Shown here: positions 5,658-20,000 of the stretch, in pieces
How positions within the stretch are numbered: position 1 is the stretch's first letter
Layout: the number at the start of each line of letters is the position of its first letter
Virus record (IMG/VR): IMGVR_UViG_3300042317_001647
Coordinates: 53,003 to 73,002 of that record
Length of the DNA stretch: 20,000 nt
From: an uncultured virus (IMG/VR IMGVR_UViG_3300042317_001647)
Taxonomy: Duplodnaviria > Heunggongvirae > Uroviricota > Caudoviricetes
Reading direction: 5' to 3' (one strand)
Notes under the pieces: model-generated
Databases searched by the model: none
Told to the model about the DNA's origin: nothing
What the model saw: the letters and a program-made list of their open reading frames with translations, nothing else
Program-made: the position numbers and the translations under genes

Positions 5658-5897
5658 ATAGTCTAACTTAAATCTGGTACATAGTATAAATGATCAGGAG
5701 TGGTACGCCATTATTGAACCATAGTTAGATATTTAATTTATCTATGCTAACATATAGAAGTCATAGAGTTCTATTTAGTAGCTCTACCTTAACAGGCTGA
5801 AGTCGCAAGGGTGTGCGGTATAGATATACAGAATTGTTGTAATTCCTTCAACGAGGAAGCGTTCAAGACGCGGGTTCGAAACCCGCCAGCTCCACCA
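5658..5897 (+). ncRNA. ssrA: tmRNA acceptor piece (permuted gene); 5' boundary uncertain
   Basis: Ends GAC-GCGGG-TTCGAAA-CCCGC-CAGCTCC-A-CCA, the canonical tmRNA 3' end; CGTTCAA, CCTTC and TTGTTG pair with the coding piece. Confidence 0.9.
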
Positions 5898-5980
5898 TAA
5901 GAACATAGGTTGGTATCAGAGTGGGGCCATAGCCATAAACTCCCTGCCCCTTAAAAGGGGAGTATCTATGTTTTTATGAT

Positions 5981-6197
5981 GGGGCTGTATTGGATTCGAT
6001 TGGGCGAAGAGTTAGAGAAGGCAACAGGAGAGATGACTGACCTAATCAGCATAAACATAGTAATCGCAAACGATTCTAAATTTGAATTCTACACTGTAGA
6101 TGGCATCTTTGATGCTATCGCTGCTTAATAACCAGCGAATTCTGGGGTAGGAAATACCTTATAACCAAAAATACCTAGTAGGGAGAAATCCCTACTA
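5981..6197 (+). ncRNA. ssrA: tmRNA coding piece, tag (A)ANDSKFEFYTVDGIFDAIAA
   Basis: Starts GGGGCTG..GGATTCGA; pairs with CAGCTCC giving G3.U70; resume codon GCA at 6066, TAA TAA at 6126-6131; tag ends in AA. Confidence 0.92.
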
Positions 6198-6229: not shown

Positions 6230-7369
6230 ATGAAGTCTTTTAAACCTGTTCAAGTGTCATCATCTGGTACTGAAGTTTCAGTTAAACAGTCATTTACACC
6301 AGTTTCACCTAAACAATTGTCAGATTTAGGCGCATCCAATCCTCGTGTACTCCAATTACTTTCAACATTTGATTCACCAACCGGGATTATCGATTACGGG
6401 GCGGATGTTATGTCAGATATTGCCAAAAAATCAGAAGCTTTATTAAATGAAGTCAAAGATGCTGACGTTGACTTCGTTGAACAACAGTTAACTAGTATTC
6501 TAACAATGGCGAAGACATTTCACCTGAATACGAACAATAATTCAGATTCAAATATCTCAAAACTCTTTGGAAAGATCAAAGAAAAGTTTATTAATGTCCG
6601 TGAACAACTTTCAGCAGAATTCACTGATGTGTCCACACAAATGGACAAAATTATTGACGAAATTGATCAAGCCAATCACAGAATTATTGCCAAATTAAAC
6701 GGTCTGCAAGTGCAATACCGTGAAAATTTGAATGAATATCACAGATTAGAAAATTTGATCAAAGATGCAGAAGAAGCATACCAAATAATGGCAAAAGAAA
6801 TTGAAAAAATGCGGGTTAACGCATCAGATCTCCTTGCCGCCGAAGAAGTTAATAGAAGTACAAAAAATTTAGATCGATTGGAGAAGAAAATCGATTATTT
6901 GAAGAAATTTCAAATGATGGCTATTCAAAATGCACCTTCAATTAGTCAAATGGAAGATAGTGCTGCAACATTACTCCAAAAATTCCATGATATCAAAACT
7001 ATGACTATTCCATTATGGAAAAGACAAATCAGAATGTATATAGATGGTCAAGAATTAAGAAAAAGTGCAGCATTAGCAGCAGCAGTAGATGATGCAAACA
7101 ATACTCTAATTAAAACCAATTCAAACATCATTAGTGCTAATTCAATTGAATCAGCAAAATTAAACCAACGTTCATTGATAGATGATGCTACAATAGAACA
7201 TGTACATCAAAACCTAATCAGTACATTAGGAGAAATTGTGCAAATAAACAATACTGGTAAAGAAACTAGAATTAAAAGTGCATCGAGAATGGATGAAATG
7301 AAGCGCATGTATGCTTCCATTTCATCTAATGCTGGACGGACCACTATTGCAGGACCAAAAACCCATTAA
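6230..7369 (+). CDS. Toxic anion resistance protein (TelA/KlaB family)
   Basis: Coiled-coil protein with IDYGA, QNAPSI, TIPLWK and NQRSLID motifs typical of TelA. Confidence 0.85.
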   Translation: MKSFKPVQVSSSGTEVSVKQSFTPVSPKQLSDLGASNPRVLQLLSTFDSPTGIIDYGADVMSDIAKKSEALLNEVKDADVDFVEQQLTSILTMAKTFHLNTNNNSDSNISKLFGKIKEKFINVREQLSAEFTDVSTQMDKIIDEIDQANHRIIAKLNGLQVQYRENLNEYHRLENLIKDAEEAYQIMAKEIEKMRVNASDLLAAEEVNRSTKNLDRLEKKIDYLKKFQMMAIQNAPSISQMEDSAATLLQKFHDIKTMTIPLWKRQIRMYIDGQELRKSAALAAAVDDANNTLIKTNSNIISANSIESAKLNQRSLIDDATIEHVHQNLISTLGEIVQINNTGKETRIKSASRMDEMKRMYASISSNAGRTTIAGPKTH

Positions 7370-7399
7370 TTTTTTAACAATCAACCGAGATAAGTAAAA

Positions 7400-8080
7400 A
7401 TGGCTATTGATTTAACTAAAAGAGCAGAAAAAGTAGGTATCATCCTAACTAAAAAACAAATCCGTGACATTCCATGCCAAGTAAAACTGGCAATTGATCG
7501 CAGTGGGTCCATGAATACCCTATATCGCAACAAAGTCGTTCAAGATGTGGTAGAACGAGTGCTAGCAATTGGTATGAACATCGATAAAGATAAAATTATT
7601 GACATTTGGGCATTTCATAATGATTCATTTGAGCTGCCATCAGTCAATATTAGCAACATCGAAGACTTTGTTGACCGTGAAATCGTCAAAAAAATTAGTG
7701 AAGGTGGTACAGAGTATGCACCAGTCATGAAAGACATCGTTAATAGTGCCGCACCAGTACAAACTGGCCTATTTGGGAAGTTGTTTGGGAAGAAATCTAA
7801 TTCAACTGACCCATCATTAGCTATTTTCATCACCGATGGCGAGAATTTCGATCAACAAGCAACTGAAAAGGTTATCATAGAATCACAATCTAAAGATTTA
7901 TATTGGGTTTTGATCGGTATTGGTGGTGGGAACTTCTCATTTATCGAATATTTGGGCGAAAAATACCCAAATGCCGGTTATTTGAAGATAGATGATATCG
8001 AAAGTATCAGTGATGAAGACTTATATGAAGACATTATCAGCCAAGAATTTGCTGATTGGGTCGGAAAGTTTAAAAAATAA
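7400..8080 (+). CDS. vWA-domain protein of ter clusters
   Basis: MIDAS motif DRSGSM, GGTEYAP, FITDGE, WVLIGIG. Confidence 0.88.
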   Translation: MAIDLTKRAEKVGIILTKKQIRDIPCQVKLAIDRSGSMNTLYRNKVVQDVVERVLAIGMNIDKDKIIDIWAFHNDSFELPSVNISNIEDFVDREIVKKISEGGTEYAPVMKDIVNSAAPVQTGLFGKLFGKKSNSTDPSLAIFITDGENFDQQATEKVIIESQSKDLYWVLIGIGGGNFSFIEYLGEKYPNAGYLKIDDIESISDEDLYEDIISQEFADWVGKFKK

Positions 8081-8108
8081 TTGACATACCTGAATTTACA
8101 GGTAGAAT
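8081..8108 (+). promoter_or_regulatory. sigma70-type promoter with palindromic site
   Basis: TTGACA-N16-TAGAAT; TACCTG-N6-CAGGTA palindrome in the spacer. Confidence 0.6.
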
Positions 8109-8143
8109 GAAGATTCTTTCAACAAACACACAGGTAATAATCA

Positions 8144-9151
8144 ATGTTACAATATTTTAAAGGTTCTTTTTTGATTGCTGGTATCGGTATCGTACTAGCA
8201 TATTTGATCGGTGGGCTCGAAGCAGCCTGGATCACGTTAGTTTTATCAATTCTTGAAGTTAGTTTGAGTTTTGATAATGCCGTCGTGAATGCACAAGTTC
8301 TAAAAGGAATGGATGATATATGGCGTCATCGTTTCATTACCTGGGGTATGGCTATTGCTGTATTTGGTATGAGAATGGTGTTTCCATTAGCAATTGTGTC
8401 AGTTGCATTGGGAATTAACCCATATTCATCATTCATGTTAGCAGTTAATGACCCAGAACAGTATTCTCATGCGCTAGAATCAGTCCATACCTCAGTCATG
8501 GGTTTCGGTGGCACATTCCTAATGATGGTTGCATTAAAGTTTTTCATCGATCATGACAAAGATACGCATTGGCTTAAACCAATTGAAGAAAGATTCACTA
8601 AATTAGGCAAAATTGAAGCAATACAATCTGCAATTACATTAGTATTGGTATATATTGTTTACAAAATCATCGGATCCACACATAATGAAACAGAAGCATC
8701 AGCATTCTTGGTCGCAAGTGTATTCGGATTAGTAACGTACATTCTTGTCGATGGTTTAGAAGCAGTAATCGGGACTGATGATGGCACGGTTACAGGTGCA
8801 GTAGCCAAATCCGGGTTAGCATCGTTTCTTTACTTGGAAGTATTAGATGCAAGCTTCAGTTTCGACGGAGTATTAGGTGCATTAGCATTGACAAACAATA
8901 TTTTCATCATCATGATTGGCCTTGGTATCGGTGCGTTATTCGTAAGAAGCTTAACATTACTAATGGTAGATAAGGGCACTGTTGATGAATTCATTTACCT
9001 AGAGCATGGTGCATTCTATGCAATATTTGGATTGGCTATCATCATGTTCGTAAATACTGTATACGAAATTCCAGAAAGCATTACAGGGTTGATTGGTGCT
9101 GCATTCATTGGTGCATCATTGATCTCTTCAATCAAACACAAATCAATTTAA
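8144..9151 (+). CDS. DUF475 / TerC-like integral membrane protein
   Basis: LEVSLSFDNAVVNA, LEVLDASFSFDGV and YLEHGAFYAI motifs; many TM helices. Confidence 0.92.
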   Translation: MLQYFKGSFLIAGIGIVLAYLIGGLEAAWITLVLSILEVSLSFDNAVVNAQVLKGMDDIWRHRFITWGMAIAVFGMRMVFPLAIVSVALGINPYSSFMLAVNDPEQYSHALESVHTSVMGFGGTFLMMVALKFFIDHDKDTHWLKPIEERFTKLGKIEAIQSAITLVLVYIVYKIIGSTHNETEASAFLVASVFGLVTYILVDGLEAVIGTDDGTVTGAVAKSGLASFLYLEVLDASFSFDGVLGALALTNNIFIIMIGLGIGALFVRSLTLLMVDKGTVDEFIYLEHGAFYAIFGLAIIMFVNTVYEIPESITGLIGAAFIGASLISSIKHKSI

Positions 9152-9174
9152 TTAAACTACCAAGAGGTAATAAC

Positions 9175-9744
9175 ATGGCAATTAATCTTGCAAAATCTGA
9201 AAATAAAGGTATCAACCTAACCAAATCACAACCTGCCATGGGAAAGGTAAAGGCAGTATTATGGTGGAATGTTCCAGATAACAATCCAAAATATGATTTA
9301 GATGTATCAGCGTTTGTTTTGAAAACAACCGATAATGGTCCGAAGTTGTTAGGTGATGACTATTTGGTGTTCTATAACAATGAAGCGACACCTGAAAAAA
9401 GTGTTTCAAAAACACCAGATATGCGTCAAGGTGGTACCGAAGAGGTTTTCATCGATATCAATACGTTACCAGCAACAGTTGATGAAATTTCAATTGTTGT
9501 AACCATCCATGAAGCTGTATCTCGTGGTCAGTCTTTTGGTCAGGTACCTGAAGCAGGTATCAAAATCTTAAATGCTGATACCAATGAGGAAATTGCATTC
9601 TATGATCTAGATGCTGACTACAAAAATGAAACAGCCGTTCAAGTTGGATCATTCTTCAAACGTGATGGACAATTCTCATTCCAGGCAATTGGAGCCGGGT
9701 TCGATGGTCTTGAGTTAGGCGATATCGTCAGCGGTTATCAATAA
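9175..9744 (+). CDS. terD: TerD-family stress protein
   Basis: MAINLAK, YDLDVSAF, LVFYNN, VTIHEA..RGQSFGQV, FQAIGAGF. Confidence 0.9.
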   Translation: MAINLAKSENKGINLTKSQPAMGKVKAVLWWNVPDNNPKYDLDVSAFVLKTTDNGPKLLGDDYLVFYNNEATPEKSVSKTPDMRQGGTEEVFIDINTLPATVDEISIVVTIHEAVSRGQSFGQVPEAGIKILNADTNEEIAFYDLDADYKNETAVQVGSFFKRDGQFSFQAIGAGFDGLELGDIVSGYQ

Positions 9745-10167: not shown

Positions 10168-10242
10168 GCACCCGAAGCTACTAGGTATAGCACAAGCCTC
10201 TAAAACTTGCGACAATGGGTTCGAATCCCATCGGGTGCACCA
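10168..10242 (+). tRNA. tRNA with CUA anticodon (amber suppressor)
   Basis: GCACCCG/CGGGTGC acceptor, GCTA/TAGC D stem, CAAGC-CTCTAAA-ACTTG anticodon arm (C31.A39 mismatch), ATGGG-TTCGAAT-CCCAT T arm, ACCA. Confidence 0.85.
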
Positions 10243-11619: not shown

Positions 11620-12145
11620 ATTAGGCAAATAAATTTAGGCAACGATAAATATGATTTCACAGGCACTTTTTCAGGCTATACACTTCTGATACACTCGCAC
11701 CGGTGGTTTGACAGGTGCCCCAGGAAATGGAATGTTCTTCGCATGGAGGGAAACAGCTGAGTAGAAGCAGCGACTCATTCGACTACTTGCACATTGTGAT
11801 GCAAATGATGATTGGATACGCCTACGTACAACCAATTTCGAATGTTTGAACAAAAGATAAAAAGGCTAAATGACCAGGTAATTCCTGGACGTATTAGGAA
11901 TATGGTAGAGTATTTTCCTAATGCCACCGTTGGACAACAGAAACAAAAACGCACTTCGAGGTATCGGCCAACCGCCTCTGTAACCAGTGTAACTCTACTA
12001 ATGAAGTCAACTCAGTTGAAATTATTTTTTTGCTCCCTTTATGGGGGCAAAAGTAAATCGTAATCTAGTTGAATAGGTAAGATAGAAATTATAAAAAATG
12101 TGATGAGCGATAGCGAAGAACAGGAGAACGTTAGTTCTCCTTTAG
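11620..12145. other. Large hairpin-rich non-coding block (ncRNA or replication origin)
   Basis: Raised GC, no credible ORF, at least 8 inverted repeats. Confidence 0.5.
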
Positions 12146-13303: not shown

Positions 13304-13398
13304 AATATGCTGAAAAACAGCTATTTTGACTAGTAAATAAGAATTTTTACTAAATAAAAATACAATTATAAAAAAATAAAAACTTTTTTAAAAAGTGC

Positions 13399-13427
13399 TT
13401 GACAAAGAAACTAAATAATTGTATAAT
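13399..13427 (+). promoter_or_regulatory. Consensus sigma70 promoter of the attenuator leader
   Basis: TTGACA-N17-TATAAT with A/T-rich upstream region. Confidence 0.8.
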
Positions 13428-13478
13428 ACGCTTCATCAGTTGGGGTCAACCGATGAAATTAAAGGAAAATTGATACAA

Positions 13479-13616
13479 ATGGAAATGCAATCATTACATC
13501 AACAATTTAAACTACAATCAACCTTAAAAGGCGGCTCGATTGCGTCTGTATGGTGTGCATTTAGTTTAATTAATGATCGCACACCGGAGTATCGTGAGGG
13601 TTCTTTGAAGACATAA
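13479..13616 (+). CDS. Putative 45-aa attenuator leader peptide
   Basis: AAGGA at 13462-13466 (in-frame TTG 13470 is an alternative start); last codons overlap the antiterminator strand. Confidence 0.6.
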   Translation: MEMQSLHQQFKLQSTLKGGSIASVWCAFSLINDRTPEYREGSLKT

Positions 13617-13676
13617 TTTAATATTATAAGTTAATTTTTCAAAGAACCCTGAAAGTGAAAACTCTCAGGGTTTTTT
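13597..13676 (+). terminator. Mutually exclusive antiterminator/terminator
   Basis: 13597-13611 pairs with 13636-13650 (15 bp); alternatively AACCCTGA 13645-13652 pairs with TCAGGGTT 13665-13672 (GAAA loop) plus a T tract. Confidence 0.8.
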
Positions 13677-13704
13677 AGTTTTAGACTCCTTAAAAAAAAA
13701 GTAG

Positions 13705-13733
13705 TTGACAGACACAGAAACACAGATTATAAT
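13705..13733 (+). promoter_or_regulatory. Consensus sigma70 promoter at the head of the tRNA array
   Basis: TTGACA-N17-TATAAT. Confidence 0.75.
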
Positions 13734-13873
13734 ATGAAGTACAGTGGTATAGAGAATGAAATATTGGTCTCTATTAGAAAACGCGATTCTGCTCACCACT
13801 ATAAAAATGAGCTATTAATGAGGGCGGTCTAGGGGATGAGAAGCACCTTGTGTGGTGTGTGGAAAAACCTAGA

Positions 13874-13962
13874 AATATTAAAACACATTGAGAATAGTAG
13901 AATTTGATTTCTACGGAATGTAGACAGTGGATTTGAACGACCCACCAGTGTGTTTTAATATT
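13874..13962 (+). ncRNA. Long-stem cassette S1
   Basis: AATATTAAAACACATTG / CAGTGTGTTTTAATATT, 17 bp with one G.U. Confidence 0.5.
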
Positions 13963-14028
13963 AAAACATACTAGATCAGCATTAAGAATTACGGTTCTTG
14001 ACAAGTTAAAGTGAGTATGTTTTAATAT
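13958..14028 (+). ncRNA. Long-stem cassette S2
   Basis: ATATTAAAACATACT / AGTATGTTTTAATAT, perfect 15 bp. Confidence 0.5.
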
Positions 14029-14077
14029 ACACTCTTCACTGACTACGAATCAGTTAAAATGCATAGCAGGAGAGTGT
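14029..14077 (+). ncRNA. Mini-RNA displaying an Arg(ACG) anticodon stem-loop
   Basis: ACACTCTTC/GGAGAGTGT closing stem; ACTGA-CTACGAA-TCAGT inside. Confidence 0.5.
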
Positions 14078-14088
14078 TATAAGTTATT

Positions 14089-14181
14089 GGGTGTCTTGAG
14101 GCTATGGCGTGTGCCTCTCTTGACTGTAAATCAAGTCCCTCGTGGTAAACATTCGCGGTTCGAATCCGTGGACACCCACCA
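14089..14181 (+). tRNA. tRNA-Tyr(GTA)
   Basis: GGGTGTC/GACACCC, CTTGA-CTGTAAA-TCAAG, long variable region, T arm, ACCA; unusual 5-bp D stem. Confidence 0.9.
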
Positions 14182-14194
14182 ATTTTTTAATTAT

Positions 14195-14273
14195 CTCCGT
14201 GTAGCTCAGTTTGGTAGAGCGCTCGATTTGGGATCGAGAGGATTCGTAGGTTCAAATCCTACCACGGAGACCA
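14195..14273 (+). tRNA. tRNA-Pro(TGG)
   Basis: CTCCGTG/CACGGAG, CTCGA-TTTGGGA-TCGAG, ACCA. Confidence 0.93.
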
Positions 14274-14274
14274 A

Positions 14275-14388
14275 TTTATATAAAAACACATTCACGGTTA
14301 GGGGATACTGAGCATCTGGACGCAGGGGCTATCCGAAAGTGTAGGCATACATACCGAAAGCTCAGAAACGAGTGTGTTTCTATATAAA
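14275..14388 (+). ncRNA. Long-stem cassette S3
   Basis: TTTATATAAAAACACATTC / GAGTGTGTTTCTATATAAA (18 of 19 paired); inner CTGAGC/GCTCAG. Confidence 0.5.
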
Positions 14389-14395
14389 AGTTTAT

Positions 14396-14470
14396 ATCCT
14401 GGTAGTTTAATGGTGAAAACACTGGATTTTCATTCCAGTAATCCGAGTTCGATCCTCGGTCGGGATACCA
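14396..14470 (+). tRNA. tRNA-Glu(TTC)
   Basis: ATCCTGG/TCGGGAT, CTGGA-TTTTCAT-TCCAG, ACCA. Confidence 0.9.
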
Positions 14471-14476
14471 AATTAT

Positions 14477-14576
14477 ATCTGTATAGCTCAGTCTGGTAGA
14501 GCACCTAACTATGTGGCCTAGGTAAACACATAGAGCATTAGGAGGTCGCGGGTTCGAATCCCATTACAGATGTCCA
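14477..14576 (+). tRNA. tRNA-like gene with a 29-nt hairpin insert in place of the anticodon loop
   Basis: ATCTGTA/TACAGAT acceptor, canonical D arm, CCTAA/TTAGG stem enclosing CTATGTG/CACATAG, TTCGAAT T loop. Confidence 0.6.
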
Positions 14577-14587
14577 TTATGAATAAT

Positions 14588-14666
14588 GGCCGATGGGACT
14601 GCATGGAGTGGTCACTTGCCTGTCACGCAAGATATCAGAGGGGATTGTTACCCCTATCGGTCGCCA
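14588..14666 (+). tRNA. tRNA-Asp(GTC), non-canonical T loop
   Basis: GGCCGAT/ATCGGTC, CTTGC-CTGTCAC-GCAAG, T loop ATTGTTA, GCCA. Confidence 0.8.
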
Positions 14667-14672
14667 AATTAT

Positions 14673-14727
14673 GGGGCAAAAAGATGAAATCCTGTCAAGG
14701 ATTTTAACAGCAATTATAGCCCCGCCA
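14673..14727 (+). ncRNA. Armless tRNA-like mini-element
   Basis: GGGGC/GCCCC-G-CCA; AAATCC-TGTCAA-GGATTT hairpin containing GTC; CAGCAA motif. Confidence 0.4.
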
Positions 14728-14742
14728 ATTTTTGAGGTAAAA

Positions 14743-15273
14743 ATGTTAGATATAACTATAACAGGATTATACGAAGCAAGTTTATGGGCACCAACCCATA
14801 CTAAAGTCATTAGCATTGTTGATCCAACTACCAAAGTATTTGAATGTGATGTTCCACATCATGTAGAAAGATTTCATGATATTGAAGTACCATTAGAAGG
14901 ATATCAACATCCTACTTTACAAAATATTGAAAATATTTTAGAATTCAGTAAAACATTTACTGATACTGATAAAGTTTTAATTCATTGTCATGCTGGTGTT
15001 AGTAGAAGTACAGCAACTGCTATTCTAGTACTAATACAACATGGCATGGGTATTAAAGAAGCGTTTGAGAAGGTTTATTCAATTCGTGATTGCATGAATC
15101 CTAATGTAATGATAATTAATTACGGTGATGAACTATTGGAATGCAATGGTGAATTGTCCGATTATTATAATAAATGGTCTGATGATAACCGTATAGAATA
15201 CGGACGATTTGGTGGACAAACATGGGATAGTAATACAGATGCTATGAAAAATATCTTGCAAATGTTCAAATAA
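14743..15273 (+). CDS. Cys-dependent protein tyrosine/dual-specificity phosphatase
   Basis: HCHAGVSRS (CX5R) and FHDI motifs; GAGG RBS before ATG 14743; the ORF-track start lies within tRNA-Asp. Confidence 0.9.
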   Translation: MLDITITGLYEASLWAPTHTKVISIVDPTTKVFECDVPHHVERFHDIEVPLEGYQHPTLQNIENILEFSKTFTDTDKVLIHCHAGVSRSTATAILVLIQHGMGIKEAFEKVYSIRDCMNPNVMIINYGDELLECNGELSDYYNKWSDDNRIEYGRFGGQTWDSNTDAMKNILQMFK

Positions 15274-15295
15274 TACGTTATAATTTACACAGTTT

Positions 15296-15350
15296 TAGGA
15301 TACATGCAGCAATTAAAAAACATTCTTGAAAAATGAAAAAGCGTATCCTG
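15296..15350 (+). ncRNA. CAGCA-stem RNA A, Ser(TGA) anticodon mimic
   Basis: TAGGATAC/GTATCCTG stem, CAGCAA, CATT-CTTGAAA-AATG; TTGCAA-N17-TATAAT at 15256-15284. Confidence 0.65.
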
Positions 15351-15358
15351 ATAATTTT

Positions 15359-15434
15359 GCTACTGTGGCAGTGATGGTTCATGCACTGGACTGAAAATTC
15401 AGCTATACTGGTTCGATCCCAGTCGGTAGCACCA
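15359..15434 (+). tRNA. tRNA-Phe(GAA)
   Basis: GCTACTG/CGGTAGC, CTGGA-CTGAAAA-TTCAG, ACCA. Confidence 0.9.
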
Positions 15435-15459
15435 ATTTTAACTTTACAATTTGGTAATT

Positions 15460-15738
15460 ATGGAATATATTAACCCAGACAATCCAGAACTCACTATTAG
15501 CGTATCTGATACAACAATAGTTTTTATGAAAAATGGAAGATCGCATAACACAGATGGACCAGCAATTATTAGATATGATGGCCGCAGAACTTGTTATTGC
15601 CAAGATGGGAAATATCATAATGAACACGGCCCTGCTGTTATTACTAATTTCACAGAAGAAGAATATTGGTTGCATGGTAAAAAGATCTATTTAAAAAGTA
15701 AATGGGAACAACAAGTTCTTGAAGATCGAACCATCTAA
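15460..15738 (+). CDS. Hypothetical protein with HxxxGPA beta-repeats
   Basis: HNTDGPAII and HNEHGPAVI repeats, EYWLHGK. Confidence 0.75.
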   Translation: MEYINPDNPELTISVSDTTIVFMKNGRSHNTDGPAIIRYDGRRTCYCQDGKYHNEHGPAVITNFTEEEYWLHGKKIYLKSKWEQQVLEDRTI

Positions 15739-15917
15739 TCAATGGATACTCTGACCCAGAGGATAAGAAGTGTGGTGATACACATGGGTGGTATGCTTTG
15801 AACCAAAAGCACGTTGGCAATACGAGAATTCTGTTCCGCCAGAACCTGCAAGTTGATAACCATGAAGTACAAGTGGCAACCTCTGTGATAGCCGGGAATA
15901 AGAAAGCACCAATTTTA

Positions 15918-15991
15918 GCCTCCTTGGTTTAATGGGAGAACACTAGTCTTACACACTGGTTGCGGTAGTTCGATTCTATCAGGAGGCACCA
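15918..15991 (+). tRNA. tRNA-Val(TAC)
   Basis: GCCTCCT/AGGAGGC, CTAGT-CTTACAC-ACTGG, ACCA. Confidence 0.92.
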
Positions 15992-16009
15992 AACACAAAG
16001 GAAACTATT

Positions 16010-16336
16010 ATGGACGAAGAAACCCGAAAGAAATTTTTTACAAAAACTGAAGATACCGGTAGACATGTTGTTTATTCATATCGAACTGGTAAAACCTACT
16101 ATATTGAAGTTATCGGTGATAATCACACTAAATGGGGTGATCTTAATCCGAGTACTGGTAAATTAGAAGGTAGTTATGGTAGTAAATATCGTGGTTCTAT
16201 CGATTCTAATGATAGTTTGATTACAGAAACCAATGGATTTACTAATATCACGGAATTACAGCCTGGATACAGTCCATATGCTGAAATTGAACGCCGTGAT
16301 GCACAATATCCAGATAAAATAATTGACAACGTATAA
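16010..16336 (+). CDS. Hypothetical phage protein
   Basis: AAGGA RBS; TGRHVVYSYRTGKTYYIE...WGDLNP. Confidence 0.8.
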   Translation: MDEETRKKFFTKTEDTGRHVVYSYRTGKTYYIEVIGDNHTKWGDLNPSTGKLEGSYGSKYRGSIDSNDSLITETNGFTNITELQPGYSPYAEIERRDAQYPDKIIDNV

Positions 16337-16359
16337 AAATGCTGTATAATTAACAGCAT
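16323..16359 (+). promoter_or_regulatory. sigma70 promoter with palindrome over the -10 (copy 1)
   Basis: TTGACA-N16-TATAAT; ATGCTGT-N7-ACAGCAT. Confidence 0.75.
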
Positions 16360-16368
16360 AAACAGTTT

Positions 16369-16431
16369 TAGGATACATTCAGCAAACAATTTACACTGAA
16401 CTTTTAATTCAACTAGTAAAAACGTATCCTG
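16369..16431 (+). ncRNA. CAGCA-stem RNA B, Lys(TTT) anticodon mimic
   Basis: TAGGATAC/GTATCCTG, CAGCAA, TGAA-CTTTTAA-TTCA. Confidence 0.7.
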
Positions 16432-16497
16432 CTATAACAACATAGGAAATAATTATGAAACGAAAGACAAAAACAGAAAAAGAAGGCAAGAAAATTT

Positions 16498-16573
16498 GGG
16501 ATCGTAGTTCAATTGGTTAGAACACCGGACTTTTAATCCGGGAATTCGAGTTCGAGTCTCGGCGGTCCTACCA
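16498..16573 (+). tRNA. tRNA-Lys(TTT)
   Basis: GGGATCG/CGGTCCT, CCGGA-CTTTTAA-TCCGG, ACCA. Confidence 0.92.
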
Positions 16574-16577
16574 AATT

Positions 16578-16682
16578 ATATAATAAAGCATATTAGCGTC
16601 TGATCAGCGTTGTGTGGATCACAGTTTGAGCTCCGGGCTTGAATGAAGACGGTTCAATTCCGTGTAGTATGCTTTATTATAT
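16578..16682 (+). ncRNA. Long-stem cassette S4 with a T arm
   Basis: ATATAATAAAGCATATTA / TAGTATGCTTTATTATAT (18 bp); ACGG-TTCAATT-CCGT. Confidence 0.55.
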
Positions 16683-16688
16683 GATTTT

Positions 16689-16807
16689 ATATTAAAGTGC
16701 ATTAATCAGTCACCTTGACATCACTGGCCAGAAGGATGTTAAGCTTGAGGGCCGGAGACAGGAGGATGTGTAGCATTCGTGTTCCCTCGTTTAATGCACT
16801 TTACTAT
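16689..16807 (+). ncRNA. Long-stem cassette S5
   Basis: TAAAGTGCATTAA / TTAATGCACTTTA (13 bp, extendable); inner CTTGACATC/GATGTTAAG. Confidence 0.5.
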
Positions 16808-16814
16808 ATGATTA

Positions 16815-16933
16815 TATAATAAACCACACTATAAATGGTGGTAAGATACGTTCGATTCGTATTGAGGTACACTGGTGTGTTGAGTGCGACGGCAACCGAA
16901 GGTTCGAATCCTTCCGTAGTGTGGTTTATTATA
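16815..16933 (+). ncRNA. Long-stem cassette S6 with two T arms
   Basis: TATAATAAACCACACTA / TAGTGTGGTTTATTATA perfect 17 bp; ATACG-TTCGATT-CGTAT and GAAGG-TTCGAAT-CCTTC. Confidence 0.55.
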
Positions 16934-16951
16934 AAATTAGACTAATTAGGT

Positions 16952-17025
16952 GTGGCCGTGTCGGAATTGGTAGACGACCCTGATTGTGATTCAGAATTTT
17001 ATGGGTTCAAGTCCCATCGGTCACC
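16952..17025 (+). tRNA. tRNA-His(GTG), no encoded G-1 or CCA
   Basis: GTGGCCG/CGGTCAC-C, CCTGA-TTGTGAT-TCAGA, ATGGG-TTCAAGT-CCCAT. Confidence 0.85.
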
Positions 17026-17100
17026 CCTAATTAGTTTTGGTAACTACCCAGATGATTGATAACCTCAAATAATAAATACTCAGTAACATATAGGAAAACT

Positions 17101-17475
17101 ATGAGAGCTTATTTTTTAACAAACATGTACCTGAGTTCTATACAACACGGTATACAATCTTTGCATGCACTGCAAGAGATCAACAACAAATATGGTACAA
17201 CTAACGAACTATTGGTAGATTGGGCTGAAAACCACAAAACTGCAATTGTATTGAATGGTGGTACTAGTGAACAGATGGCAAACATTGTCAATTTGTTAAA
17301 CAATGAAACAAACGAATATCCATGGGCGATTTTTAATGAACCATCGATTGACAATGCATTGACTAGTATTGGTATTATTGTTCCTGATACAATTTATGGG
17401 CGTGAAAGGTCTGATTTTGGTACATTCGAATATGAATTATCACAATTACTGAGAAATCGTGGATTTGCGAGGTAA
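17101..17475 (+). CDS. Peptidyl-tRNA hydrolase type II (Pth2)-like phage protein
   Basis: AGGA RBS before ATG 17101; GIQSLHA, W...KTAIVLNGG, FNEP...ALTSIGI resemble the Pth2 fold pattern. Confidence 0.65.
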   Translation: MRAYFLTNMYLSSIQHGIQSLHALQEINNKYGTTNELLVDWAENHKTAIVLNGGTSEQMANIVNLLNNETNEYPWAIFNEPSIDNALTSIGIIVPDTIYGRERSDFGTFEYELSQLLRNRGFAR

Positions 17476-17477
17476 GT

Positions 17478-17642
17478 ATGGCAGGTAAAAGAACATCGGA
17501 TATCGTTAAAAGAAATCTTGACTATGTAGAACAAGATATGCTAAAATTACAGCAACAATTAAGCGAAGCAACGGAAAAATATGAGGCTATGAAAATAGCA
17601 TATCATCATGCATTAGCCTGTGAAAAAACTCCGTTTAAATAG
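17478..17642 (+). CDS. 54-aa coiled-coil hypothetical protein
   Basis: GAGG RBS; MAGKRTSDIVKRNLDYVEQDMLKLQQQLSEATEKYEAMKIAYHHALACEKTPFK, TAG stop. Confidence 0.6.
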   Translation: MAGKRTSDIVKRNLDYVEQDMLKLQQQLSEATEKYEAMKIAYHHALACEKTPFK

Positions 17643-17648
17643 AATTAT

Positions 17649-17725
<77 letters not shown>

Positions 17726-17853
17726 AACTCTAGAGCTGGGCAACCTTAATATCATTTGAAACACTATCTTCGGATGGGCGCAGTAATAAAAACGAGGCTG
17801 GTAGAGGTCTCCCGAGTATTGTATGATGTTAGATACTCAAAAAATATATAGAA

Positions 17854-17894
17854 ATCTGTCACTTATGTATAAATACATACAAGGAGTGACAGAT
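17854..17894 (+). promoter_or_regulatory. Start-sequestering hairpin with T4-type late promoter at its apex
   Basis: ATCTGTCACT / AGTGACAGAT stem covers the end of AAGGAG and the ATG; TATAAATA at 17868-17875. Confidence 0.85.
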
Positions 17895-18615
17895 GAACTA
17901 CTGCAAAATTTACAATTTGATTGTTCGTAACAGAATTATCAATCCAATTGATGGATATACCGAAACACATCACATAATACCAAGATCATTAGGCGGATCT
18001 AACGATTTAGATAATTTGGTTAAGTTATCTGCTAGAGAACATTATATTTGCCATTTATTATTGATGAAAATGTATAAATATGGCACAGTTGAATGGTGTA
18101 AAATGGTGAAAGCATTTTCATTTTTGTCGTATGGGCATAGTAATTATCATAACAGGTATGTTAATAGTAGATTTTATGAATTATTAAGAAGAAATTTTAG
18201 TTTAGCACAATCAGTGATGCAAACGGGTATTCGAAATTCACAATATGGTACTATGTGGATATGTAATTTAGAATTGAAGAAAAATAAAAAAATAAAAAAG
18301 ACAGATATAATCCCAGATGGGTGGATTAATGGAAAGGTTGTAAATTTTGATTCACACTATAAAAAACTACAAGAAAAAATAATAAAAAAACAAAATTTAG
18401 AACAAAAAACAAATGACAAAATAATAAGATTAAAAGAAATAATGTATTATTATAGAGATAACGATATCTCTATGCGAAATTTGACTAAAAAATTTAATGT
18501 AGGTCACAATATTTATAAATCATTTGAATTATATTTTAAAGATGAATATTATGAAATAGTTAAAACCAAAAGTGGGAATAGTAATACAACAAAAGGCAGA
18601 TATAAGCTCGATTAG
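17893..18615 (+). CDS. Free-standing HNH homing endonuclease
   Basis: ETHHIIPRSLGGSNDLDNLVKLSAREHYICHLLL; NSQYGTMWI motif; stop codon lies inside tRNA-Asp. Confidence 0.92.
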   Translation: MNYCKIYNLIVRNRIINPIDGYTETHHIIPRSLGGSNDLDNLVKLSAREHYICHLLLMKMYKYGTVEWCKMVKAFSFLSYGHSNYHNRYVNSRFYELLRRNFSLAQSVMQTGIRNSQYGTMWICNLELKKNKKIKKTDIIPDGWINGKVVNFDSHYKKLQEKIIKKQNLEQKTNDKIIRLKEIMYYYRDNDISMRNLTKKFNVGHNIYKSFELYFKDEYYEIVKTKSGNSNTTKGRYKLD

Positions 18616-18680
18616 TGTAATGGTTATCACGTTGGATTGTCGATCCAAAAATAGGAGTTCAATTCTCCTATCGAGCGCCA
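18606..18680 (+). tRNA. tRNA-Asp(GTC), second copy
   Basis: GCTCGAT/ATCGAGC, TTGGA-TTGTCGA-TCCAA, GCCA. Confidence 0.88.
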
Positions 18681-18685
18681 AATAT

Positions 18686-18779
18686 GGGTTGTAAATGGAT
18701 GAGCATTAGGGTTCGATTCCCTTTAAGTATGGTAATGAATAGCAATTGCAGCTCGGTAGTTCAAGTCTACCGCAACCCA
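18686..18779 (+). ncRNA. tRNA-like RNA with two T arms and no anticodon
   Basis: GGGTTGT/GCAACCC, GAGC/GCTC, AGGG-TTCGATT-CCCT and GGTAG-TTCAAGT-CTACC. Confidence 0.55.
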
Positions 18780-18789
18780 AATATTTTGA

Positions 18790-18864
18790 GCGGGTATAGC
18801 TCAGTGGTAGAGCTTCAAGTTGCCAACCTGAATGTCGTGAGTTCGAATCTCATTACCCGCTCCA
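18790..18864 (+). tRNA. tRNA-Gly(GCC)
   Basis: GCGGGTA/TACCCGC, TTGCCAA loop, TCCA. Confidence 0.92.
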
Positions 18865-18873
18865 AAATAAATA

Positions 18874-18910
18874 TTGACAATGAATAAAAATGCTGTATAA
18901 TACATAGCAT
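18874..18910 (+). promoter_or_regulatory. sigma70 promoter with palindrome over the -10 (copy 2)
   Basis: TTGACA-N16-TATAAT; ATGCTGT-N7-ATAGCAT; near duplicate of 16323-16359. Confidence 0.75.
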
Positions 18911-18919
18911 AAACAGTTT

Positions 18920-18983
18920 TAGGATACCTACAGCAACAATCATACATTTGACAGCTAATCAAACCCGTAAAATGTGTATCCTG
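18920..18983 (+). ncRNA. CAGCA-stem RNA C, Ser(GCT)-like anticodon mimic
   Basis: TAGGATAC/GTATCCTG, CAGCAA, TTTGA-CAGCTAA-TCAAA. Confidence 0.65.
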
Positions 18984-19022
18984 ACAGAATATTCGAGGCT
19001 AGTCACCAGCGAATAAGACCAA

Positions 19023-19141
19023 TAGGTTAGTTTCAGCAATTTTATTAAATCTTATTGTAAAAGAAAGTTCTGGGTTCGAATCCCAGCGTTAGGGTTGGTC
19101 ACTAATGTAGTTTAATTGGGAAAACTTAAAATGCTAACCTG
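19023..19141 (+). ncRNA. CAGCA-stem RNA D with a circularly permuted tRNA module (YrlA-like)
   Basis: TAGGTTAG/CTAACCTG, CAGCAA, then anticodon arm (TGT), T arm, looped acceptor stem and D arm, in that order. Confidence 0.7.
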
Positions 19142-19151
19142 TAATAACAAT

Positions 19152-19225
19152 TGGGATATGGTGTAGTGGTAACACAACTGGTTTTGATCCAGTCATCCAT
19201 GGTTCGAATCCGTGTATCCCTGCCA
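19152..19225 (+). tRNA. tRNA-Gln(TTG)
   Basis: TGGGATA/TATCCCT (1-72 mismatch), ACTGG-TTTTGAT-CCAGT, GCCA. Confidence 0.92.
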
Positions 19226-19253
19226 ATTTTTTAACTATTATCGGAATGATATA

Positions 19254-19667
19254 ATGCTAGTAATTGAACAAGAAGTAAAAAAACCTTACAACTTAATCCC
19301 TGAGTATCCTAGATACACTGGTACTGACCTTATTGAAGCGGTAACAGTTTCAGTCGGAAATTATAGAAACTATAAATCCGAAACATTAAGAAATACACCA
19401 CATCACTTAAAAACATTTGTTGAACAATACTTTGTTGATGCGGATAAACATTTCGAACGATTGATGGATGTTGTAATTCAAATTCCAAAATCATTCACTG
19501 CGGAAGTAACAGACTATAGTTCCATTAAACTGGTTCATAATGATGTTTCTTACTTCTTGAACTTGCGAGTTGATCTTGATTCCAAATCAATCGCTGAGTC
19601 AGAATTCGTTTTATCACTTGTAAAACGAACACGCTTTATGGAATCAGAAAAAGAACGATTATCTTAA
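19254..19667 (+). CDS. Hypothetical protein
   Basis: ORF track, with the start moved out of tRNA-Gln to MLVIEQEV. Confidence 0.7.
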   Translation: MLVIEQEVKKPYNLIPEYPRYTGTDLIEAVTVSVGNYRNYKSETLRNTPHHLKTFVEQYFVDADKHFERLMDVVIQIPKSFTAEVTDYSSIKLVHNDVSYFLNLRVDLDSKSIAESEFVLSLVKRTRFMESEKERLS

Positions 19668-19677
19668 CTGATTAATA

Positions 19678-19768
19678 AGGGTGATTACAGCACAAAAATG
19701 CCGAAGCCGATAAGCGGGTATCTTCTGGGAGTTCGAATCTCCCGGCTCCGAAACAATATATCATCCTG
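19678..19768 (+). ncRNA. CAGCA-stem RNA E with T arm and acceptor-like helix
   Basis: AGGGTGAT/ATCATCCT-G, CAGCA, CGAAGCCG/CGGCTCCG, GGGAG-TTCGAAT-CTCCC. Confidence 0.6.
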
Positions 19769-19793
19769 TGATTTTAATTAACAAAGGTGTAAA

Positions 19794-20000
19794 ATGAGAA
19801 AATTAAATATGTTATTCATGATTGGTGCTTTAGCATTGGTTACTGGATGTGCAACAAACACAGATATCGCCAAATTACAAGGTGAAATCGATGTAATTAC
19901 TACAAATCAAAAAACATTGAGTACTGGATTAGTAGATACTAATCGCGCTCTATCAACTGTTAGTTCAAAAGTTGATAATGCAGTAAAAGCAGCAGAACGA
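19794..20000 (+). CDS. Lpp/OprI-like outer-membrane lipoprotein (3' truncated by window)
   Basis: MRKLNMLFMIGALALVTG-C lipobox followed by coiled coil ...SKVDNAVKAAER; AAGG RBS. Confidence 0.75.
   Translation, partial: MRKLNMLFMIGALALVTGCATNTDIAKLQGEIDVITTNQKTLSTGLVDTNRALSTVSSKVDNAVKAAER

Follow-up and report, generated by a model that had tools for sequence, protein, structure and literature searches.

Handle RNAs with tRNA-mimic cargo in phage tRNA clusters and their candidate Ro60-fold protein partner

The bacterial Y RNA YrlA (RF02553) consists of a terminal stem joined to a tRNA-mimic module, has its gene beside that of a Ro60-fold protein, is bound by the Ro protein in vivo and carries tRNA modifications (PMC4201824; here and below, cited papers are represented by the available portions of their text). 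Phages have related systems: some jumbo phages encode a ROT/TROVE protein with a tRNA-like partner (PMC7824862), and the Ro60 and Y-like RNAs of a Thermus phage bind and dampen the host PNPase (PMC12135203). Here we analyse a window of 20,000 nucleotides (nt), the whole stretch under study, which forms the last 20 kb of a 73-kb record of an uncultured Caudoviricetes virus (IMG/VR IMGVR_UViG_3300042317_001647, positions 53,003 to 73,002; record completeness estimated at 20%) and whose tRNA gene cluster harbours copies of what we call handle RNAs. The handle is a 7-base-pair (bp) terminal stem followed by 3 nt and CAGCAA, and reads AG-N5-N3-CAGCAA. We conclude that handle RNAs are a genuine variant of Ro-partner RNAs, apparently not described before, and that their candidate partner, a protein with DUF2828 and DUF7788 domains, can be named and tested. 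A literature search found no paper on CAGCAA-handle RNAs or on their tie to DUF2828; partners of this kind could already be named by Burroughs and Aravind (2016).

The design resembles that of Y RNAs, as a sequence-only reading of the window had proposed, in that a covarying terminal stem is joined to a tRNA-mimic module with a real anticodon loop as cargo. Despite this Y-RNA-like working, the handle RNAs are set apart from YrlA because motif, partner and score all fail. The motif GNCGAAN0-1G, found near the 5' end of YrlA (PMC4201824), is not present in the handle; the YrlA partner is a TROVE and vWA_Ro60 protein encoded within about 4 kb on the same strand, whereas the candidate here has DUF2828 and DUF7788; and the RF02553 model gives copy 4 of the window 25.9 bits and the best relative 48.9, the partial matches (26-49 bits) all lying below the cut-off of 69. 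The YrlA order of variable region, T arm, looped acceptor and D arm (PMC4201824) is shared by copy 4 and by 32 permuted members of the family but not by copies 1-3 and 5, and, unlike in YrlA, the cargo is often a bare anticodon stem-loop, copy 4 also retaining its anticodon arm. None of the 22 phages in Table S2 of PMC4201824 is among the DUF2828 phages examined. A second comparison is with the phage tRNAs that rescue from PARIS, whose AriB targets Lys(UUU), Thr(UGU) and Asn(GUU): they likewise carry Lys, Thr or Asn anticodons and lie in tRNA clusters, but they are functional, cleavage-resistant and restore decoding (PMC12409363), whereas handle RNAs could only compete or inhibit. Streptomyces phage Phredrick has an unannotated permuted tRNA-like RNA that resembles the tRNA part of copy 4 (L150 4001-4082); it lies 5' of a classical TROVE Ro60 gene and lacks the CAGCAA handle.

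Handle RNA copies and their family

The pattern AGG-N7-CAGCA has six matches in the window, every one of them on the + strand; 200 shuffles gave 0.29 on average and never more than 3. Five of these copies had been noticed from sequence and exist as described, with coordinates shifted by at most 1 nt (Table 1). The compensatory stem changes GATAC/GTATC, GTTAG/CTAAC and GGTGA/TCATC are present, as are the four 7-nt anticodon-like loops CTTGAAA, CTTTTAA, CAGCTAA and ATTGTAA, the identity of the copy 2 loop with that of the neighbouring tRNA-Lys, and the lack of an anticodon arm in copy 5, which has a T arm and an acceptor-like helix instead. For copy 4, the Thr(UGU)-type anticodon arm stands, but the cargo is a complete circularly permuted tRNA and not the mere stem-loop that had been described. 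The sixth copy had been overlooked; its acceptor-like G-C helix, followed by GCCA, encloses a handle whose 3' strand precedes its 5' strand, a permuted layout also found in relative L019. In relatives of copy 5 the acceptor-like helix likewise terminates in GCCA. Position 33 of the copy 3 loop is A, while relatives have the canonical U. ARAGORN calls none of the six copies a functional tRNA, none reaches the Rfam tRNA cut-off, and a search for membership of another Rfam family returned nothing at cut-off over any copy. The first 53 kb of the same contig hold no further copy with an AG start and a CAGCA core.

Table 1. Handle RNA copies, promoter-like sites and tRNA cluster (window positions)
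Feature	Position	Strand	Details
Copy 1	15297..15350	+	Handle and Ser(UGA)-type anticodon stem-loop 15321-15335 (4-bp stem)
Copy 2	16370..16431	+	Handle and Lys(UUU)-type anticodon stem-loop 16397-16411; tRNA-Lys at 16498-16573
Copy 3	18921..18983	+	Handle and Ser(GCU)-type anticodon stem-loop 18947-18963 (5-bp stem)
Copy 4	19024..19141	+	Handle and circularly permuted tRNA, Thr(UGU)-type: anticodon arm 19050-19064, variable region, T arm 19070-19086, loop-joined acceptor strands 19087-19092 and 19102-19107, D arm about 19110-19125
Copy 5	19678..19768	+	Handle (one G-U pair), acceptor-like helix about 19702-19709 with 19743-19750 (one mismatch), T arm 19727-19743; D-like loop unpaired
Sixth copy, permuted	14673..14727	+	Pattern match, fold z -2.88; acceptor-like helix 14673-14677 with 14719-14723; handle 3' strand 14687-14694, 3-nt loop, 5' strand 14698-14704, CAGCAA core 14708-14713
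Sigma70-like promoter before copy 1 and tRNA-Phe	15256..15284	+	10/12 consensus bases
Sigma70-like promoter before copy 2 and tRNA-Lys	16323..16350	+	12/12 consensus bases, 16-nt spacer
Sigma70-like promoter before copies 3 and 4	18874..18901	+	12/12 consensus bases
tRNA gene cluster harbouring handle RNA copies	14089..19225	+	12 ARAGORN calls within span

Sigma70-like sites do precede copies 1-3, ending 13-20 nt upstream, but they need not be the copies' own promoters, since downstream tRNA genes and open reading frames (ORFs) follow the same sites. Across the window, promoter-like sites scored with a sigma70-type consensus are no commoner than in shuffles (54 versus 47.9). When folded in isolation, copies 1-5 do not exceed shuffled sequences in stability (z -1.2 to -1.6), and the minimum-energy folds of copies 1-3 do not contain their anticodon hairpins.

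Searches with the exact pattern led to at least 137 viral loci and 239 distinct members, with up to 14 copies within one 21-kb locus. A tRNA gene lies within 1 kb of 349 of 395 copies and within 40 nt of 183 of them. AG and CTG are part of the search rule; of 144 handles, 80% have a T after CTG. Because it is circular to count pairs in members that were chosen for pairing, we made two blind tests on loci reached by way of the protein described below. In the first, with the 3' end picked regardless of pairing, all five variable stem positions were paired in 19 of 29 distinct stems; 2000 shuffles of the partners gave 1.7 on average and at most 7. In the second, anchor sites had a complementary partner in 204 of 268 cases on the strand of the gene and in 2 of 18 on the other strand. 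The modular family with a covarying terminal stem that had been proposed from the five copies is thus borne out; the handle RNA family is real and widespread in phages. It includes a conserved class of about 160 nt with long cargo that is not tRNA-like (L003 2849, L014, L063, L102, L136 and others); one long cargo looked like signal recognition particle RNA and gave no Rfam match. Nine pattern matches were found in bacterial genomes, where only L146 adjoins DUF2828 and the rest look isolated or due to chance; DUF7788 is above cut-off in 2 of 401 genomes of one bacterial phylum. The handle was not found in the annotated stable RNAs of T5.

Anticodon loops and other tRNA parts as cargo

The cargo was analysed in short members (72 nt or less), clustered to 124 non-redundant sequences after exclusion of 9 bacterial-genome loci and 6 loci of tandem-array or giant-virus type. 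A hairpin with a 7-nt loop is present in 84 of these, against 22 in shuffles, while loops of 4, 5, 6, 8 and 10 nt are barely enriched; we read an excess at 9 and 11 nt as the same 7-nt hairpins counted further out. Exact matches to a real tRNA loop occur in 35 of the 124 members (0.34 expected), and permutation of the loop letters reduces them from 35 of 84 to 1.7, the reference loops being those of 1592 tRNA genes of the same loci, which are mostly phage tRNAs rather than host tRNAs. The short cargos are, as far as sequence can tell, true anticodon-loop mimics. Their stems are A/T-rich, with 28% G+C compared with 60% in tRNA anticodon arms.

Anticodons could be assigned in 51 cargos, Lys, Ser, Thr, Ile, Tyr and Arg being the commonest; the wider cargo list includes some T loops miscalled as anticodons. 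The last anticodon letter is U or A in 47 of these 51, against 919 of 1592 tRNA genes. Anticodon classes with U or A at position 36 carry t6A or i6A at position 37, and the bias would fit sponges for tRNA-modifying enzymes or synthetases, whose loops titrate these enzymes and shift host translation. Such a role seems to us very unlikely, however: the tRNAs of the phage itself would need the same enzymes, and A/T richness may explain part of the bias. The 4-letter core of the AriB site is commoner in cargo arms (18 of 23) than in tRNA anticodon arms (43 of 95), a comparison confounded by the A/T-rich stems just mentioned.

Longer members include the 32 permuted tRNAs. The same circle also occurs opened at the acceptor end: the KVP40 gene annotated as tRNA-Pseudo-3 (L262 5304-5419) and one element of Aeromonas phage LAh_6 are normal-order tRNAs into whose anticodon stem a handle has been inserted. 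The handle RNAs cannot decode, because none joins an anticodon and a free acceptor end. Nor does the cargo supply missing anticodons, since a close relative also encodes full Ser(UGA), Ser(GCU) and Thr(UGU) tRNAs. These elements account for unannotated gaps in many phage tRNA clusters, and for the KVP40 'pseudo-tRNA'.

A linked gene for a predicted Ro60-fold protein

The sequence-only reading had coupled its modular, Y-RNA-like family to Ro60/TROVE or RtcB; the first half of that interpretation is supported and the association, as named, is not. The TROVE domain (PF05731) was found in 0 of 48 records and 0 of 3 near-complete ones, most records being fragments, and in 0 of 1 in a search of the record studied here; for RtcB, too, the count over the records of this phage group was 0 of 48. 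With zero counts in the own record and in the 48, we do not take classical Ro60/TROVE to be the partner. The first clue to a different protein was the cultured-phage match LAh_6, in which copies crowd a DUF2828 gene. Of 50 handle-bearing records, most of them fragments, 39 contain DUF2828, and so do all three near-complete ones. Starting from the protein, and taking the best 80 of 594 loci, which come from related phages and are not independent events, we found handles in 78, with 252 copies on the strand of the gene and none on the opposite strand (1.7 expected); in 64 of 73 loci a copy ends within 300 nt 5' of the gene. The protein family occurs in 710 records of a cultured-phage collection, and gene-adjacent copies were found by the strict rule in warpig, KVP40, LP-048, NCTC12673 and Bas63 and, with a variant start, in Kingsolomon; the cultured phages with copies near the gene include those of E. 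coli, Vibrio, Aeromonas, Listeria, Campylobacter and Mycobacterium.

In seven further, distant DUF2828 loci the strict handle rule found no copy (0 of 7). Read by eye, distant loci have the same handle geometry with different first bases, and a looser rule, set after seeing them, gave same-strand matches within 1 kb in 14 of 16 DUF2828 loci (3 of the 16 originally found by motif) and none on the opposite strand, with about 0.1 expected in each case. The same rule found nothing within 1 kb of three TROVE-type Ro60 genes (0 of 3). Four control phage records, the three with TROVE-type Ro60 and T5, do not contain DUF7788; parts of them were scanned for handles. An Erwinia jumbo phage has no handle within 4 kb of its DUF2828 gene, and two matches in L327 fall inside an RtcB gene and are doubtful. 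In that same Subdoligranulum record (L327 2722-5434), the RtcB gene lies directly 5' of DUF2828, with no convincing handle near.

For the phage studied here, we infer the DUF2828 gene from its relatives: those with 85-98% identity over much of 13386-19918 have it, and its start in relative L235 lies about 7.7 kb beyond the counterpart of window position 19918.

This distribution bears on two further explanations. The handles could be cis-acting elements, that is, protein sites on operon transcripts that serve regulation of the protein's own mRNA or processing of the tRNA operon, with the cargo secondary. The copies that end shortly 5' of the gene, those close to tRNA genes, and those of LAh_6, which abut the gene start, would fit such a role, yet Bas63, Kingsolomon and a Staphylococcus phage have copies 3' of the gene, the giant-virus locus L074 has them on the strand opposite to it, elsewhere they lie up to 10 kb away, and the cargo loops are under selection; we consider a cis-acting role unlikely. 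Still more remote, to the point of being hardly credible, is that the copies are repeats without function, or tRNA genes in decay, that recombination has spread. The copies do share sequence, lie in tRNA arrays and have no unusual stability alone, but their stems covary, their strand bias is strict, their loops are preserved on A/T stems that are not tRNA-like, and they are linked to one gene across distant phages.

The DUF2828 and DUF7788 protein is predicted to fold like Ro60, although a shared fold does not show a function. The 470-residue protein of relative G012, which matches DUF2828, DUF7788 and PHROG 850 ('RNA-binding protein'), gave a model with a pLDDT of 79 and a pTM of 0.70. A Foldseek search with this model returned Ro60 as the best match (E 7.8e-8, TM 0.59), and all 11 matches listed at E <= 0.001 were Ro60; in structural alignments, Ro60 structures reached Z 14.1, 13.0 and 11.4 over 382-398 residues and the next match 9.0, the best alignment (Z 14.1) having a root-mean-square deviation of 4.9 over 398 aligned residues. 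A PDB sequence search with the protein gave no significant match. The model has the two hallmarks of the Ro60 fold, a helical-repeat ring and a vWA domain with a DxSxS metal site, whose residues D273, S275 and S277 are invariant. A protein family of unknown function thereby gains a candidate RNA partner and a putative binding motif.

One member of this family, gp130 of phage Bas63, has been studied: PhageMaP reported that it counters the Ppl defence and resembles Ro60, and its authors guessed that some tRNA genes near g130 are Y RNAs, identifying no RNA in the available portions of the report (bioRxiv 10.1101/2024.10.10.617714). We find four unannotated handle RNAs between the tRNA genes of Bas63, beside g130. 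Bas63, which can be grown on laboratory E. coli, offers a direct test system, with a g130 knockout in existence and the four RNA genes now located.

Possible roles, likeness to Class I RNAs and neighbouring features

Taken as a whole, our best explanation, which we regard as an even call, is that the handle RNAs are partners of a second Ro60-fold family and display tRNA mimics against host defence. The handle RNA genes would encode RNA partners of the DUF2828 and DUF7788 protein of about 470 residues, the constant handle being its likely binding site and the cargo a tRNA mimic in the form of a bare anticodon stem-loop, a circularly permuted tRNA or an acceptor/T minihelix. That the handle binds the DUF2828 protein seems to us highly probable. 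Copies are probably cut from the transcripts of tRNA operons by ordinary tRNA processing and stabilised on the protein ring, which would present tRNA parts to host proteins that recognise tRNA. The targets would most likely be defence nucleases or sensors directed at tRNA, which would in this way be kept busy or inhibited as phage translation goes on. Bait against tRNA-directed defence is, slightly short of an even chance, the main function that we propose; it best explains why many exact loops, including the AriB targets Lys, Thr and Asn, are kept by RNAs that do not decode. If the loops are bait, phage tRNA clusters would oppose tRNA-targeting immunity by competition besides replacement, with no need for decoding.

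The main rival to bait is a tether or gate in the style of classical Y RNAs, in which the RNA links the ring to host enzymes of RNA processing, decay, modification or repair, or blocks the ring until needed; PNPase-like enzymes or ligases would be reached through the tRNA-like part, and the protein would be the active component, tuned by its RNAs. The shared Ro60 fold, the arm order of copy 4, which is that of YrlA (PMC4201824), and the dampening of PNPase by the Thermus phage Ro60 and its Y-like RNAs (PMC12135203) point in this direction, as do the activity of gp130 without RNAs, the RtcB gene directly 5' of DUF2828 in one clostridial record and the RtcB and RNA ligase genes near the DUF2828 gene in LP-048. 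However, a tether needs no set of many different, exactly preserved anticodon loops, and RtcB was not found in any of the 48 records of this phage group; we hold a tether or gate to be possible but rather unlikely.

Several observations weigh against our best explanation. gp130 alone, plasmid-borne or in T7, which it rescues, counters Ppl (bioRxiv 10.1101/2024.10.10.617714), so that the Bas63 RNAs are not needed against this defence. RNA-library contigs from three runs of one freshwater sample, which have no DNA control and do not show ends or strand, read through copies and neighbouring ORFs at similar depth (a fourth run gave small pieces only). A 7-nt hairpin is missing from 40 of the 124 short members, and 92 of the longer members have no T arm. 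Against the decoy role for PrrC or AriB suggested by the sequence-only reading, the full AriB site shows no enrichment, occurring in 2 of 23 cargo arms and in 16 of 95 tRNA anticodon arms, and PrrC requires ct6A37 (PMC12409363), which a bare loop may not receive. Concerning the partner, the contig studied here has no DUF2828 and DUF7788 gene, and to this are added the relatedness of the protein-first loci, the zero count of the strict rule in the distant loci and the late setting of the looser one, all given above. Finally, among 41 loci of giant-virus type with the junction pattern, DUF2828 lies within 5 kb in only 4.

Most of these giant-virus-type loci are tandem arrays in which up to 10 handles recur about every 65 nt (L271-L311, e.g. 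L032 2880-3460 and L074 2999-3345). The L074 array is divergent from a DUF2828 gene, and DUF7788 is found in 2 of 3 searchable records of this type.

A further likeness, which we treat as a lead, is to the Class I RNAs of dictyostelids (RF01414). Both groups of RNAs are about 60 nt long and come from multi-copy genes. In both, the short terminal stem covaries and keeps one G-C pair fixed, CAGCAA closes an unpaired motif, the middle is variable and rich in A, and the RNA ends in CUGU; the northern probe for AsuR-10 implies seven 3'-stem letters identical to those of copies 1-3 (PMC7919456). The spacer between stem and core is 4 nt in the Rfam consensus of Class I and 3 nt in the handle. Of the positions T3, C6, C9, A10 and A11 in the 11-nt Class I motif, C6, C9 and A10 are set by our search rule, while A11 is found in 88% and T3 in 44% of handles. 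Copy 1 scores 29.2 bits with RF01414, a second match in the window 23.1 and nine relatives 25.3-32.1, against a cut-off of 41.5; the giant-virus arrays gave no match to this model. A candidate threshold of 25 bits was used with the own model of PMC7919456. The same paper names as binder of Class I RNAs the RRM protein Rnp1A/CIBP, found in its available portions no such RNAs outside Dictyostelia and, unlike what we see in handle RNAs, reports there no anticodon cargo; Class I genes have a DUSE element 60 nt upstream, and phage copies 1-3 follow sigma70-like promoters. Pull-down with Class I RNA has also yielded the protein DDB_G0281243. The likeness would provide a candidate partner protein for an RNA class thought unique to social amoebae. 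A broader proposal, in which DUF2828 and DUF7788 proteins and CAGCAA RNAs form a second Ro-type ribonucleoprotein system that is common to phages, giant viruses and eukaryotes, the Class I RNAs being its cellular members and anticodon-loop bait its use in phages, is in our view doubtful.

ARAGORN makes 14 calls in the whole window, including transfer-messenger RNA (tmRNA), and the window also contains ter genes and an adenylate cyclase gene. The tmRNA is a permuted, two-piece phage form with a tag peptide (5835-6128, +; 134 bits against a cut-off of 47), and directly 3' of it lie genes for TelA, vWA-TerF, a TerC-like DUF475 protein and TerD (6230-9744, +); the cyclase is of the CHASE2 type (425-2494). 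A tRNA with a CUA anticodon, possibly an amber suppressor, is found at 10168-10242 (+), and a Polynucleobacter-1 RNA motif (RF01718) with a promoter-like site in front at 11692-11847 (+; 64.6 bits, cut-off 37). Within the tRNA cluster, the element at 14476-14576 (+) is a tRNA body with a 7-bp hairpin and a 4-nt bulge in place of the anticodon loop; this hairpin differs from the CAGCAA handle, and the fetched loci hold no homolog longer than 60 nt. At 14590-14668 (+), reading by eye picks out a tRNA-like gene that neither ARAGORN nor Rfam detects; its anticodon is GUC and its T loop is atypical. Four non-coding elements (14280-14392, 16580-16688, 16690-16812 and 16818-16934, all +) are each closed by a long terminal stem (z -2.5 to -3.5); they occur in related viral loci only, none reaches an Rfam cut-off, and two of them carry T-loop-like hairpins.

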